Virus record (IMG/VR): IMGVR_UViG_2588253749_000004
DNA: 54,473 bases
Source of the DNA: a virus
Lineage: Duplodnaviria; Heunggongvirae; Uroviricota; Caudoviricetes
Reading direction: 5' to 3' (one strand)
Every line of letters begins with the position of its first letter. Position 1 is the stretch's first letter. Below, piece after piece: positions 21,849 to 51,476 of the stretch. The position numbers and the translations under genes are program-made. The notes under the pieces are model-generated. The model had not been told where the DNA came from, ran no database searches, and was given only the letters and a program-made list of their open reading frames with translations.

Positions 21849-24015
<2,167 letters not shown>

Positions 24016-31483: not shown

Positions 31484-31747
31484 CATTTCCTCTTTTAGTC
31501 TGTTATGACTGTCCTGGTACACAGTAGTGTCAATTATATGGAGCAAACGTATAAAAGATAAGATGAAACATCGCAATAATCAACATACGACGGTCTAAAT
31601 TTCACACAAACAGATAAAGATGATTATCATTTATTATCAATGCATTAGAATCAAATTAGACTGGCCCCCTGAATCTCCAGACAACCAGTATCACTTAAAT
31701 AAGTGATAGTCTTAATACTAGTTTTTAGACTAGTCATTGGAGAACAG

Positions 31748-35409: not shown

Positions 35410-35625
35410 TTACTCTCCTCTCGCAGCCTTACGCCTGTCTTCTTTAATCTTGAAATAAAGATTTGTCAGATACGTCAGCATGCCAAATACCAGACTACCC
35501 AATACACCTATTGCCGCCCACTGTGAGGGCGTGACTTTATCGAGCAACTGTAAAAACCAGTAGCCAGCACTGCCTGCAGAGGTGCTGTAGGCGATGCCCG
35601 TTGTTAACTTATCCATGGATTTCAT
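35410..35625 (-). CDS. Pinholin (phage 21 S21-type class II holin) with dual-start motif
   Basis: 71 aa starting MKSMDK (Met1/Met4 dual start); sequence closely matches my recollection of S21; two TM segments. Confidence 0.85.
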
Positions 35626-35815
35626 AGCCTCACCTCCGCAGATAACGGATGGTGTACACGGTTTGGTTCGAAGAAGGAAAGAAGTTACATTAGCGTAAGG
35701 CCCGAACATCTATTCAAAAAGAAAAACGCCAGCAATTATTCTGGCGTAGCTAAAAATATCGTATAATCTTACACTTCAAAAAATAACTTTATAAAATGCC
35801 ATCACATCATATCTT

Positions 35816-36538
35816 CTAAGAAAATCTTGATAAATATTGGTGCGGAGGCACACCAAAATATCCTCTAAAAACACTTACAAAATATGATGCATTGTCATAC
35901 CCGCATATTCCCGCCACCTTGCCGACAGTATGGTTACTGTAGATCAATAATCTTTGCGCCATCATCATTCGTTCTTCAAGAATTAATTTACTAAACGATA
36001 ATCCTTCGTCTTTTAATTTTCTTTTTAACAAACTCTCGCTCATATATAATCTTGAAGATATATCACAAAGTCTCCATGACGCTGAGATATCCGAGTGAAT
36101 AATAGCCTTAACTTTACAACCTAAGCTATTAAGACTTCCGAACAAAAAACTTTGCACTATTTTCTCTGAAGATAAGACAGCAAGACATGCAAGTGATATT
36201 TGATTTCTAACTACATCCACGGTTTTGCTATCACAATTCAAGCATGCAACCAAGTTCTTTAACAATGAAAAATCTTCACATTCTACTATCAAGTATGACG
36301 GATAAAACCTTCTTACAGAAAAAGGTGAGAGTGTGTAGTTTTTAAAGAAATCATTAACTGTTTTCTCCTCAACATCTACGATCATTAGATGATCTGTATT
36401 TGACGAAAAAAGATCTTTTAAATTGTATTCAATGAGGACAGCATTTCCTTTTTTAAACAAAATATCTTCTTTACCAATTCGGACACCAAACGAGTTCAAC
36501 ACCAAAATGATAGAACATATGTATGACATATTATCCAC
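35816..36538 (-). CDS. AraC-family transcriptional regulator (AppY/GadX/YdeO-like)
   Basis: 240 aa; C-terminal AraC-type HTH; visibly AT-rich gene. Confidence 0.8.
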   Translation of the reverse strand: MDNMSYICSIILVLNSFGVRIGKEDILFKKGNAVLIEYNLKDLFSSNTDHLMIVDVEEKTVNDFFKNYTLSPFSVRRFYPSYLIVECEDFSLLKNLVACLNCDSKTVDVVRNQISLACLAVLSSEKIVQSFLFGSLNSLGCKVKAIIHSDISASWRLCDISSRLYMSESLLKRKLKDEGLSFSKLILEERMMMAQRLLIYSNHTVGKVAGICGYDNASYFVSVFRGYFGVPPHQYLSRFS

Positions 36539-36935
36539 CTGATATCATTGGGGTTACACCAGGTAAGTATAGGTGGAAAATCAATATTCGCCAGTTCAAC
36601 AATAAGGAAAATCTCATTGCATCACAACTATAAAACCATGTGTTTAACTCACAAAAAACAAATCATTAAACTAATCTGTTATATTATAATAGCTGCGTGC
36701 AATAATAATATTATATGCTCTTTATATTCACTTGAAATATCTTCATATAAAAACAGATTGAATAAAATCTTTTGGGGTTGGTATGTTTACCAACATTAAA
36801 TTGCATCTCAATGTTTTCTTTAGCGTGAACAGGATTTTTATAAAAAATGACACTATGAGCATCATAGCGTAGTTTTTACGATTGTAAATATCCTGCATAC
36901 AGGAACTCATCACTTTCAGATGATATCGCATACAG

Positions 36936-37896
36936 TTAATTCACCATCAGTCTTAGAGCCAGTTCTTCCGGATAGGGATCGAAGTAATTCTGTGTAAGCA
37001 AGTAATCATTAGGATACTCACCCAGATAATGCTTCAGCAGAGTCAACGGCGCAAGAAGAGGCAATGTGCCAAAGCGATAGTTAAGTATAACCTCGCTCAA
37101 CTCTTTACGCTGGCGTGTACTTAAGTAATTACTAAAATACCCCTGTATATGCATCAGCACATTCGTGTGATTTTTACGTGATGCTGGTTTTCTGAGAATC
37201 GCCATCAGATTATCACGATACACCTCAAAGTATGATTCAAGGTCCGCCCACTCGTGTATTGCAGCCACAAATGGTCCCATATCTTTATAGCCTGCCTGGC
37301 TATGCGCCAACAACTGAAGCTTATAACGACTATGAAAAGCTAATAACTCTCTTCTTGATAATTTCTCCTTGTAAAGGTGATTGAGCTCATGCAAAGCAAA
37401 AACTCTTTCAATAAAATTCTCACGAAGCACTGGATCATGTAATCGCCCATCCTCTTCAACCGGTAGCCAGGAAAACTTTTCCATCAAAGTGCTCGTAAAT
37501 AGTCCCACTCCATCTTTACGACCTCGATTACCATTTTCATCATAGACACGCACGCGCTCCATGCCACAGCTGGGAGATTTAGCACAAACCACAAACCCCG
37601 ATACATCCTTTAATTTGTCCATATAAGAACGACTAAACTCTGTCATTCTCTCTGTCACATCCTCATTCTGGTCGTGGCTGAAACACATCCGTATATTTCC
37701 TTGCTTCGAGCGCACAAGTCGTAGAGCAGGACGCGGAAACTGGCAGCCCTATAGCCATTTCCGGACATACTGGTCTGAATGTTACCCATTCCACTAATTT
37801 GTCCATTAAAAAGTCATCTCTTTTGTGACCACCATCAAAACGAACAGCAGAACCGCCCAAACAACCGCTGATCCCAATCACAGGTTTTTTTATCAT
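36936..37896 (-). pseudogene. YbgA-like (DUF523 + DUF1722) gene split by a single-base frameshift
   Basis: ORFs 37663-37896 (N-terminal part) and 36936-37715 (C-terminal part) together cover a YbgA-like protein. Removing one T from the GTTT run at ~37737-37740 restores ...IGLPVPRPALRL... Confidence 0.7.
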
Positions 37897-38088
37897 TTCC
37901 TCCCCCTTGACTAATTCATTAACACATAAACTTTGTAGTGCACGGACTAAATTGCCTTTCTGGCTTCATCACTGACAATTTTTCTGTTATTGACTATTCC
38001 TAATATAGTAGGAAAGTTCTTTAAGTGATCGGTCGTACTCATCTATCTTTCATACTTACTCTCAACTATCAAAAGTACAGGATTTATT

Positions 38089-38613
38089 ATGAAGTTATGG
38101 CCTGTGTTGACTGGCATTGCACTCTCTTTCACTCTTATAGCATGTAAGGCCCCGACACCACCTAAAGGTGTGCAGCCGATTACAAATTTTGACGCCAACC
38201 GCTACCTCGGAAAATGGTATGAAATAGCTCGCCTCGAGAACTGGTTCGAACGTGGTCTGGAACAGGTCAGCGCTACTTATGAAAAACGGAACGACGGAGG
38301 GATTCGCGTACTTAACCGTGGATACGATCCAACGAAAAACAAATGGAGCGAGAGCGAAGGTAAAGCATACTTTACTGGAGATACTAAAACTGCAGCGTTG
38401 AAAGTTTCGTTTTTTGGCCCCTTCTATGGTGGCTATAATGTAATCAAACTGGATGATGAGTATAAGTATGCTCTTGTCAGTGGTCCGAACAGAGAATACC
38501 TATGGATTCTGGCAAGGACCCAAACTATTCCAGATAATGTAAAAGCAGACTATGTGCGTACCGCTCAAAAGTTGGGATTCAATGTCAATGAACTATTATG
38601 GGTTAAACAATAA
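38089..38613 (+). CDS. blc: Outer-membrane lipoprotein Blc (bacterial lipocalin) paralog
   Basis: 174 aa; lipobox LIAC; lipocalin motifs (NFDANRYLGKWYEIAR ...) closely matching my recollection of E. coli Blc. Confidence 0.85.
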   Translation: MKLWPVLTGIALSFTLIACKAPTPPKGVQPITNFDANRYLGKWYEIARLENWFERGLEQVSATYEKRNDGGIRVLNRGYDPTKNKWSESEGKAYFTGDTKTAALKVSFFGPFYGGYNVIKLDDEYKYALVSGPNREYLWILARTQTIPDNVKADYVRTAQKLGFNVNELLWVKQ

Positions 38614-38768: not shown

Positions 38769-39146
38769 TTATTTCGAACAATCAGCATCCATCTCCAATC
38801 GGAGATCCAACACCATCAGCATGCCCTCCACTACGCCCTCAGCTTTCTGGAGCATCCTGCCAACCCAACAATCAGATCGCCCATGCTTATGTGCAAGCGC
38901 CATAAAAGTCATGCCGCCGACATAATAGTCCACCAATAAATCATGTAAATCGCTGTTGTTTTTTTTCAGGCGAGCCATACATTCACAAATGATCATCGCG
39001 TCATCGTCACAGCATTGCGGACGAGATCTTACTTTTGAAGGAATTAATCCCTTAAAACCGGCGGCAATGGACGACCAGGTCACATCTTCATGATTATTAG
39101 CCGCCCATGCCCCCCAACGCTCAAGAACCATCTGAATATCACGCAT
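38769..39146 (-). CDS. Q: Late-gene antitermination protein Q
   Basis: About 125 aa starting [22 protein letters not shown]; Cys-rich zinc-binding region; matches my recollection of Qin QuuQ. Confidence 0.85.
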
Positions 39147-39163
39147 CAACTTACTCCACAAAA

Positions 39164-49009: not shown

Positions 49010-51476
49010 AACAGTTCCGTAATAAACATCCGATTTCATTCTTATATGCCAGCAATGGCAGGGATTTGTTCACCCTTAAATCTGTAATGAGGTAAAACAA
49101 AATGAGTAAAGTCTTTATTTGCGCCGCCATTCCGGACGAACAGGCAATAAAGGAAGAAGGTGCCGTCACTGTAGCCACTGCCATTGAAGCCGGTGATGAA
49201 CGTCGCGCCCGCGCAAAATTTCACTGGCAATTCCTGGAACATTATCCGGCTGCTCAGGACTGCGCTTATAAATTTCTTGTTTGCGAGGATAAACCCGGTA
49301 TACCCCGCCCTGCCCTCGATTCCTGGGATGCTGAATATATGCAGGAAAACCGCTGGGATGAGGCGTCTGCTTCCTTTGTCCCGGTCGAGACTGAATCCGA
49401 TCCGATGAACGTCACTTTTGACAACCTAGCCCCTGAAGTACAGAACGCTGTCATGGTTAAGTTCGACACATGTGAAAACATCACTGTTGATATGGTGATT
49501 AGCGCACAGGAATTGTTGCAGGAAGACATGGCAACATTCGACGGCCATATCGTTGAAGCGTTGATGAAAATGCCAGAAGTTAACGCTATGTATCCGGAGC
49601 TTAAGCTGCATGCCATCGGGTGGGTTAAGCATAAATGTAAGCCTGGTGCCAAATGGCCCGAAATTCAGGCAGAGATGCGCATCTGGAAAAAACGTCGCGA
49701 AGGTGAACGCAAGGAAGCCGGAAAATACACGTCTGTTGTTGATCTCGCCCGCGCCAGAGCCAATCAACAGCACACTGAAAATTCAACAGGAAAAATCAAC
49801 CCGGTCATTGCTGCCATTCATCGCGAATACAAGCAGACATGGAAAACACTGGATGACGAACTGGCCTACGCTCTCTGGCCTGGTGATGTGGATGCCGGAA
49901 ACATTGACGGCAGCATCCATCGCTGGGCAAAAAATGAAGTTATCGACAACGACCGCGAAGACTGGAAGCGTATCTCGGCATCAATGCGCAAACAGCCTGA
50001 TGCCCTTCGCTACGACCGCCAGACTATTTTTGGCCTTGTCCGTGAACGTCCGATCGACATTCACAAAGACCCTGTGGCACTGAACAAATACATTACTGAA
50101 TACCTGACTACAAAGGGCGTGTTTGAAGATGAAGGAACAAATCAGAGCGCAACTGATACTCTCTCGTCGCCAGTACCAGAAACTGATGCAGTGGAAACGG
50201 CAATTCCAGACAACGAAAAAACCGAATGCAAAGTGGAAGTCGAACCATCTGTAGAACGTGAGGGGCCGTTCTACTTCCTCTTCACCGACAAGGATGGCGA
50301 AAAATACGGTCGCGCAAATAAACTTTCTGGTCTGGATAAGGCGCTGTCTGCTGGGGCTACTGAAATCACGAAAGAAGAATATTTCGCCCGCAAAAACGGT
50401 ACATACTCAGGTTCACAACAAAATACTGGTGCATCTGACACGACCGCACAACCAGGGTCAGTAAAAGTTACCGCTGACGAAGTAAACAAAATTATGCAGG
50501 CAGCCAATATCAGCCAGCCTGACGCCGATGAACTGCTTGCAGTATCACGTGGTGAATTTGTTGAAGGGATTAGCGACCCGAATGATCCGAAATGGATTAA
50601 GGGGATCCAGACCCGCGATTCTGTGAACCAGAACCAGCAAGAAACGGAACAGAACGACCAGAAAGCGGAACAAAACAGCCCAAATACGCAACAAAACGAG
50701 CCAGAAACGAAACAACCTGAACCAGTAGTGCAACAGGAACCGGAAAAGATCTGCACCGCCTGCGGTCAGAGCGGTGGCGGCAACTGCCCTGATTGTGGTG
50801 CGGTGATGGGTGACGCAACATACCAGGAAATATTCGATGGAGAGAATCAGCCTGAAGTTCAGGAAAATGATCCGGAGGAAATGGAAGGCACTGCGCATCA
50901 GCACAAGGAGAACACTGGCGGCAATCAGCATCATGCCAGCGATAGTGAAACTGGCGAGGCGTCAGATCCCTTAATTAAGGCAAACGGTCATCATAATCTC
51001 ACATCCACCAGCAGAACGGGGATTCATCTGATGATCGACCTTGAAACCATGGGAAAAAATCCCGATGCCCCGATTATCTCAATAGGTGCAATATTTTTCG
51101 ATCCGCAAACCGGAGATATGGGACCGGAATTTAGTAAGACTATCGATCTGGAAACTGCTGGCGGAGTCATTGATCGGGACACCATTAAATGGTGGCTTAA
51201 ACAATCACGCGAAGCGCAATCTGCCATTATGACCGATGAAATCCCGTTAGATGATGCACTGTTACAATTGCGGGAATTTATCGACGAAAACTCCGGTGAA
51301 TTTTTTGTTCATGTCTGGGGAAATGGAGCCAACTTCGACAACACGATTTTGCGCCGTTCATACGAACGGCAGGGGATCCCCTGCCCGTGGCGTTACTACA
51401 ACGATCGCGATGTACGCACAATCGTTGAGCTGGGGAAAGCCATAGACTTCGATGCCAGAACGGCTATTTGTAGTGG

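Follow-up and report, generated by a model that had tools for sequence, protein, structure and literature searches.

A gene that is split by a single base may have been lost by the organism that carries it or may simply have been misread, and the choice between these two readings is the question raised by a prophage locus in the window, i.e. the whole 54,473-nt stretch of caudoviral DNA analysed here (IMG/VR record IMGVR_UViG_2588253749_000004). The gene concerned is rudS (36936-37896, minus strand), which codes for a fusion of a TudS/DUF523 and a DUF1722 domain, as delineated by its ORFs, its Pfam matches and the alignment to an intact ortholog. Its sequence carries one surplus T (TTT and not TT, corresponding to AAA at 37737-37739 on the plus strand), which splits the 319-codon gene into two ORFs of 77 and 259 aa. 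The initial annotation, which had noticed a single-base frameshift in a ybgA-like gene and had offered a genuine pseudogene or a homopolymer sequencing error as its origin, was accurate as to the lesion, given that the surplus T is the sole difference in the 1051 nt of the alignment between window positions 36900-37950 and the intact gene of strain 2 HS-C.

The split reading frame and the identity of the gene

On the gene strand the surplus base sits in the context CCAG[T]TTCCG, within a GTTTC element (GAAAC on the plus strand, 37736-37740) that is a GAAC/GTTC motif with an extra base. The deletion of one T had been expected to restore the peptide PVPRPALRL, and this is borne out: the frame ...GLPVPRPALRL... 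is regained and the CDS, 961 nt as deposited, becomes a continuous CDS of 960 nt and 319 aa, the DNA of which is the same as that of the gene annotated as WP_000592549.1, "YbgA family protein".

As deposited, the N-terminal ORF (37663-37896, minus strand; ORF list and Pfam) starts with MIKKPVIGISGCLGG and terminates with GLPVSASCSTTCALEARKYTDVFQPRPE, its C-terminal end being also given as MAIGLPVSASCSTTCALEARKYTDVFQPRPE; it retains Cys12, Cys44 and Glu46, which are followed by 24 out-of-frame residues up to a TGA codon. The C-terminal ORF (36936-37715, minus strand; ORF list and Pfam) lies in the +1 frame relative to the N-terminal one, its upstream extension reads QFPRPALRLVR, and it codes for 259 aa from a GTG at 37715 or for 250 aa from an ATG at 37688 that is preceded by AAGGA; the 250-aa product is annotated in the Escherichia coli record CP005998.1 as L960_0845c. 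Ser107, Ser109, Cys110 and the DUF1722 domain are contained in this second ORF, and the break, which falls after Val53, leaves Cys12, Cys44 and Glu46 on one fragment and Arg55, Ser107, Ser109, Cys110 and DUF1722 on the other. Specifically, the Pfam profile PF04463 (2-thiouracil desulfurase, TudS/DUF523) matches the first ORF with its positions 1-53 (E 2e-14) and the second ORF with its positions 64-141 (E 1.7e-16), and since the profile is divided between both ORFs the split lies within a single domain, which is uninterrupted after the removal of the surplus T. PF08349 (DUF1722) is matched completely by the second ORF (positions 1-117 of 117, E 5.8e-40).

RudS proteins strip 4-thiouridine (s4U) from tRNA with the aid of a [4Fe-4S] cluster bound by three conserved cysteines, and their DUF1722 domain has been implicated in tRNA binding (PMC11417400). 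The corrected protein of the window shares 91.8% amino acid identity over all 319 residues with RudS_vir of Escherichia phage 1H12, which likewise resides on a lambdoid phage, and its cysteines stand at Cys12, Cys44 and Cys110, the numbering listed in Table 1 of the RudS study for RudS_vir and for the 319-aa Salmonella ORF319/RudS_ST (PMC11417400). Glu51, Arg60, Ser111 and Ser113 are the catalytic residues in RudS_KT (PMC11417400), and Glu46, Arg55, Ser107 and Ser109 of the corrected protein are found at the positions predicted from the cysteine offsets, which were used here in place of an alignment to RudS_KT. RudS_vir and RudS_ST/ORF319 from Salmonella LT2 have the same two domains, the same length of 319 aa and the same three cysteines (Jamontas et al., NAR 2024, PMC11417400), whereas the window gene as deposited is split at codon 54 and is located in a Qin-like prophage of an enterotoxigenic strain (ETEC) and not within a light-responsive operon. 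Overall, the gene is a RudS-type TudS-DUF1722 fusion and a predicted tRNA 4-thiouridine desulfidase. The name given in the initial annotation stands insofar as "YbgA family" is the database name and DUF1722 is common to both proteins, but the K-12 YbgA consists of DUF1722 alone and is without the TudS desulfidase domain, while the window gene is of the fusion type. As to function, overexpression of RudS_vir in E. coli lowers tRNA s4U; K-12 YbgA leaves tRNA s4U levels unaltered (PMC11417400).

Distribution of the insertion

Over the 5753 nt compared, the window is 100% identical to the genome of E. coli B7A (CP005998.1), window position x corresponding to position x + 752626 of that record. We take CP005998.1 to be an early PacBio-only assembly, released alongside the SMRT-based mapping study of this strain. 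B7A is the model strain for DNA phosphorothioation, with G(ps)AAC/G(ps)TTC as the target of its Dnd system, and CP005998.1 served as the reference when its phosphorothioates were located through SMRT and iodine-cleavage sequencing (PMC6459556; PMC6435447). The closest complete genome is that of TW10573 (NZ_CP127035.1), in which rudS is intact and the 17.9 kb around the site differ by one SNP and by this indel. Approximately 52 kb of the 54-kb window align with TW10573, and no true one-base indel other than the surplus T is found in them; all homopolymers of at least six bases in the window agree between the two (99/99), and none of the remaining 462 GTTC/GAAC sites within the aligned sequence has gained a base in this way.

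The exact 36-mer with TTT is present in none of the 1075 RefSeq complete records holding the locus, and a 22-mer with TTT is found in no IMG/VR viral contig and in no metagenome contig, while the corresponding TT form is present in 110 and 57 of them, respectively. The frameshift-specific 77-aa peptide, searched together with one variant, matches only six other contigs. One of them belongs to LR134157.1, an NCTC assembly that is presumably the PacBio-only assembly of NCTC 3000, and the others to five SRA-run assemblies of one narrow accession range (SRR33768434, SRR33768651, SRR33769224 with one more run that yields an identical contig, and SRR33769256), so that the five runs provide four distinct contigs. 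The insertion is thereby found on at least six different haplotypes, and every carrier that was aligned has an intact twin from which it differs by no substitution. Specifically, one SRA-run contig (L009) aligns with its twin AST19 over 3512 nt with two insertions, a second (L008) with DETEC-E601 over 4340 nt with two insertions, a third (L010) with the REL606 haplotype over 2818 nt with two insertions and the fourth (L203), which carries a 91%-type rudS allele in a DLP12-like prophage, with 2017C-4173W12 over 3462 nt with three insertions, in each case with zero substitutions. According to the bit score, on which this comparison relies, LR134157.1 matches FDAARGOS_1077 over 1701 nt save for one gap.

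In sum, the four distinct SRA-run contigs show nine one-base insertions and no substitutions in 14,132 nt. In all nine, GTTC has become GTTTC or GAAC has become GAAAC; they are distributed over three sites in two genes and affect 9 of the 94 instances of the motif. Site 1, that of the window (37736-37740), is altered in 7/7 data sets. Site 2 is the second occurrence of GCCAGTTC, near the 3' end of rudS (36958-36965, plus strand, with the motif at 36962-36965), and it is unaltered in the window and extended by one base in 5/5 SRA-run contigs, hence in five data sets. The remaining site, a GAAC within the neighbouring lipocalin gene (38289-38292, plus strand), is unaltered in the window and altered in one data set, SRR33769256, where GAAAC cuts the lipocalin gene short. 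Sites 1 and 2 have GCCAGTTC in common in most haplotypes, and the lipocalin site and site 1 have GTTCCG in common. Only some GTTC/GAAC sites gain the base.

This distribution bears on how the insertion arose in each carrier. A heritable allele would be recognised as a lesion shared by descent, and no such sharing was found in TW10573, which is intact, in the twins, which are intact as well, or in the 1075 RefSeq records; judged from these comparisons, the frameshift is not inherited by descent. The insertions in the SRA runs must be technical, because a real process acting at such density would amount to thousands of frameshifts per genome. The comparison with orthologous loci, proposed in the initial annotation as the way to decide between its two alternatives, has in this way turned up intact alleles elsewhere and favours a sequencing error. 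As regards the homopolymer origin that the annotation had offered, the error is not, however, a classical miscall of a long homopolymer, the run being here only two bases long.

Origin of the surplus base

The surplus T turns GTTC into GTTTC, inside the phosphorothioate motif of B7A. Among the two-base A/T runs of the window only 13% lie within GTTC/GAAC, and for this reason it is improbable (roughly 0.002) that three distinct sites should all fall in the motif by chance. Two features are those expected of an artefact linked to the modification, namely that the error is situated in a motif that the strain itself modifies (GTTC to GTTTC, in DNA that equals B7A over 5753 nt) and that it recurs, specifically at the motif and without substitutions, across independent data sets (nine insertions in 14,132 nt). 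As to the other carriers, a dndC primer scan, a DndC homolog search and a cluster listing yielded only entries from other genera and partial ones from E. coli.

An influence of phosphorothioates on single-molecule reads is documented: the modification shifts polymerase kinetics in SMRT sequencing (PMC6435447), increases the nanopore error at GAAC/GTTC (PMC9069010) and renders nanopore assemblies of dnd+ isolates error-rich, under some basecaller models with the GAAC/GTTC type included (bioRxiv 10.64898/2026.03.20.713089). The insertions described here resemble these modification-induced errors, which are known in nanopore data for phosphorothioate (dnd) and methylation motifs and which likewise stay within the motif, reappear at identical sites of unrelated strains, are missing from short-read-supported assemblies and yield false frameshifts (PMC9069010; bioRxiv 10.64898/2026.03.20.713089). 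Phosphorothioate-linked insertion errors were found documented for nanopore data only and not for a PacBio consensus, and the present case differs from the nanopore reports in that the affected reference is, as we assume, an early PacBio assembly, and in that the error is specifically a +1 expansion of TT/AA inside GTTC/GAAC. A majority-consensus error is, moreover, less obvious in B7A because the phosphorothioate occupancy per site is at most approximately 35% (PMC6459556), and a minority of modified reads must tip the caller.

The surplus T is most likely a sequencing artefact linked to the modification, and rudS would then be intact in B7A. In this mechanism, the Dnd system of B7A would introduce backbone sulfur at G(ps)TTC/G(ps)AAC, the phosphorothioate would slow the SMRT polymerase and perturb the nanopore signal, and a T/A run of two bases beside the modified linkage would be read as three at part of the modified sites, giving GTTTC and, eventually, a consensus error from the single-molecule sequencing of native, phosphorothioate-modified B7A DNA. 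The B7A reference would have gained its T at a modified GTTC in this way, LR134157.1 would have been affected likewise, and the SRA runs would be native long-read data from dnd+ strains. The true gene would be the intact 319-aa RudS, a [4Fe-4S] desulfidase (Cys12, Cys44, Cys110) joined to DUF1722 that would erase 4-thiouridine from tRNA; as cargo of the Qin-like prophage, it is situated between Q and the lysis genes. The frameshift is thus probably no real biological feature.

The chief rival is a genuine pseudogene, in which B7A truly has the +1 T and has lost the desulfidase, and in which the other carriers acquired the base through separate mutations at a mild hot spot. A true lesion in B7A would not be surprising, since rudS is really broken in other strains, where it has been independently disrupted by IS3 (REL606), IS1, IS66, the nonsense change W37*, an A7-to-A8 frameshift and deletions. 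Apart from this base the assembly is clean over the window, a two-base run is an atypical place for a sequencing error, and the break, if real, would inactivate RudS, since in most orthologs the change of one Cys to Ala is enough to abolish the activity (PMC11417400). Against this, rudS is intact in TW10573, the nearest genome, which has one SNP in 17.9 kb around the site, the insertion is present in 0/1075 RefSeq records, the identical insertion lies on at least six haplotypes, of which the aligned ones each have a substitution-free intact twin, and the four haplotypes from one SRA accession range carry one or two further GTTC/GAAC insertions, which independent mutation cannot yield. Ordinary pseudogenes of prophage cargo, the fate by which rudS has truly been lost in other E. 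coli strains, have lesions that vary by strain, whereas the window insertion is identical across unrelated haplotypes and tied to the motif. With this evidence on both sides, a genuine pseudogene is improbable.

The link with the motif could also reflect mutagenesis in vivo, whereby modified GTTC/GAAC would be nicked or oxidised and its repair would add a base, producing real and recurrent +1 frameshifts in dnd+ strains. All 11 insertion events (11/11) fall within the phosphorothioate motif, B7A is dnd+, and phosphorothioate DNA is labile to oxidants (review PMC6435447), in agreement with such a process; at nine insertions and no substitutions in 14 kb (9/94 motifs), however, it would generate thousands of frameshifts genome-wide, which is not viable, the allele occurs in none of approximately 1075 complete genomes, some of which are necessarily dnd+, and relatives would inherit the mutated site, yet TW10573 is without the insertion. 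This reading is accordingly rated as very unlikely. Programmed recoding, in which the T is real and full-length RudS is obtained by ribosomal +1 frameshifting or by transcriptional slippage, has the overlap of the two ORFs in its favour and nothing more; the site CCA GUU UCC is no known +1 slippery or hungry-codon context, transcriptional slippage would require a much longer run than 3 nt, and an unbroken frame is seen in over 1000 orthologs, the experimentally active RudS_vir among them, so that this explanation can practically be discounted. The pattern of the SRA-run contigs cannot be one of inheritance or ordinary mutation and fits a modification-linked long-read error.

Further mechanisms were considered and rejected. 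A single ancestral frameshift spread through descent or recombination is excluded by the private SNPs that three carriers have between the two insertion sites, and the spread from a common donor is excluded both because such private SNPs separate sites 1 and 2 and by the match of each carrier to an intact genome everywhere outside the insertions. The surroundings of site 1 can form an imperfect 9-bp hairpin (CCGGAAATGGC...GCCAGTTCCGG, window 37751-37792, minus strand; -8.8 kcal/mol, z -2.7). Quasi-palindrome templating at this site is nevertheless dismissed, as template switching predicts a G-to-T change and not +T, the mutant hairpin is no stabler (-8.0 vs -8.8 kcal/mol by DNA folding) and a hairpin is missing at site 2. 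Nor can the 8-mer GCCAGTTC provide the rule, since nine further copies in the window and a third copy in the SRA-run contigs are all unchanged; in the DLP12-like carrier L203, site 1 reads TCCAGTTC and the third altered site reads CGTCGTTC, and only GTTC/GAAC is common to all. Lastly, Vsr/Dcm short-patch repair, IS91 targeting of GTTC, invertase pseudo-sites and Cas9-type +1 repair were dropped owing to a mismatch in the predicted product or in the motif.

For long-read assemblies of bacteria with phosphorothioate modification, the observations point to a class of false frameshifts tied to GTTC/GAAC, which would include the reference used for mapping the modification. If CP005998.1 contains motif-linked false insertions, some real GAAC/GTTC sites would be hidden from counts of phosphorothioate sites, and some of the "pseudogenes" in long-read-only assemblies of dnd+ strains would be artefacts. 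The phenomenon is known from nanopore data and would be extended to an early PacBio reference, provided that the platform is as we take it to be. A screen for GTTTC/GAAAC against GTTC/GAAC among close relatives would reveal such false frameshifts. In the far less expected event that hot spots in vivo are true, a defence-related DNA modification would itself make recurrent, site-specific frameshifts, here in a gene for tRNA de-modification.

rudS and its prophage in E. coli

In the window, rudS belongs to a Qin-like prophage, which occupies the Qin attachment region, and has its place between the antiterminator Q and the lysis genes. The antiterminator Q (38769-39161, minus strand; ORFs and orthologous loci) lies upstream of rudS on the same strand, the Blc-like lipocalin gene (38089-38613, plus strand; ORFs, Pfam and orthologous-locus annotation) is its divergent neighbour, and downstream are an AraC-type HTH regulator (35816-36538, minus strand; ORFs and Pfam) and an essD-type holin (35410-35709, minus strand; ORFs and orthologous-locus annotation) with which the lysis cassette starts. 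Since rudS is oriented like Q and the lysis genes, it is probably transcribed together with the late operon.

Of 5426 complete E. coli genomes, 1136 have the rudS locus. The RudS study describes E. coli as lacking RudS (PMC11417400), a statement that holds for K-12 only. A phage-borne eraser of tRNA s4U in about one-fifth of complete E. coli genomes merits a proper name, and B7A, an ETEC strain used in human challenge, probably possesses a functional prophage rudS where the database displays two hypothetical fragments. Phage-borne rudS is always found between Q and the lysis genes, in Qin-like or DLP12-like prophages (orthologous loci L001, L002, L003, L011 and L204), and its alleles fall into three classes of DNA identity, at 99% or above, approximately 97.7% and approximately 91%.

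Many lesions of rudS are apparently real and independent (L012, L014, L016-L021, KMi012, YSP8-1 and REL606). In the E. coli B strain REL606 (L206, 1276-3496), IS3 is inserted at about codon 49; other lesions consist of IS1, of IS66 and IS3-family insertions, of the W37* change (TGG to TGA), of an A7-to-A8 frameshift at codons 2-4 and of a prophage deletion that fuses rudS to rspB.

The prophages of the window and of TW10573 differ chiefly in their IS content. An IS21-family element of the window (22010-23955), absent from TW10573, breaks the prophage portal gene and carries, on the minus strand, istA (340 aa, 22856-23878) and istB (260 aa, 22077-22859). TW10573 has in turn IS elements that are absent from the window, namely ISEc43 and IS2 beside ynfN, and IS1 (window 31574-31581 and 49501-49510). 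Lastly, a patch with approximately 60 substitutions relative to TW10573 (9264-10700) is located in the tail-fibre region of the otherwise near-identical prophage and looks like a recombination tract.
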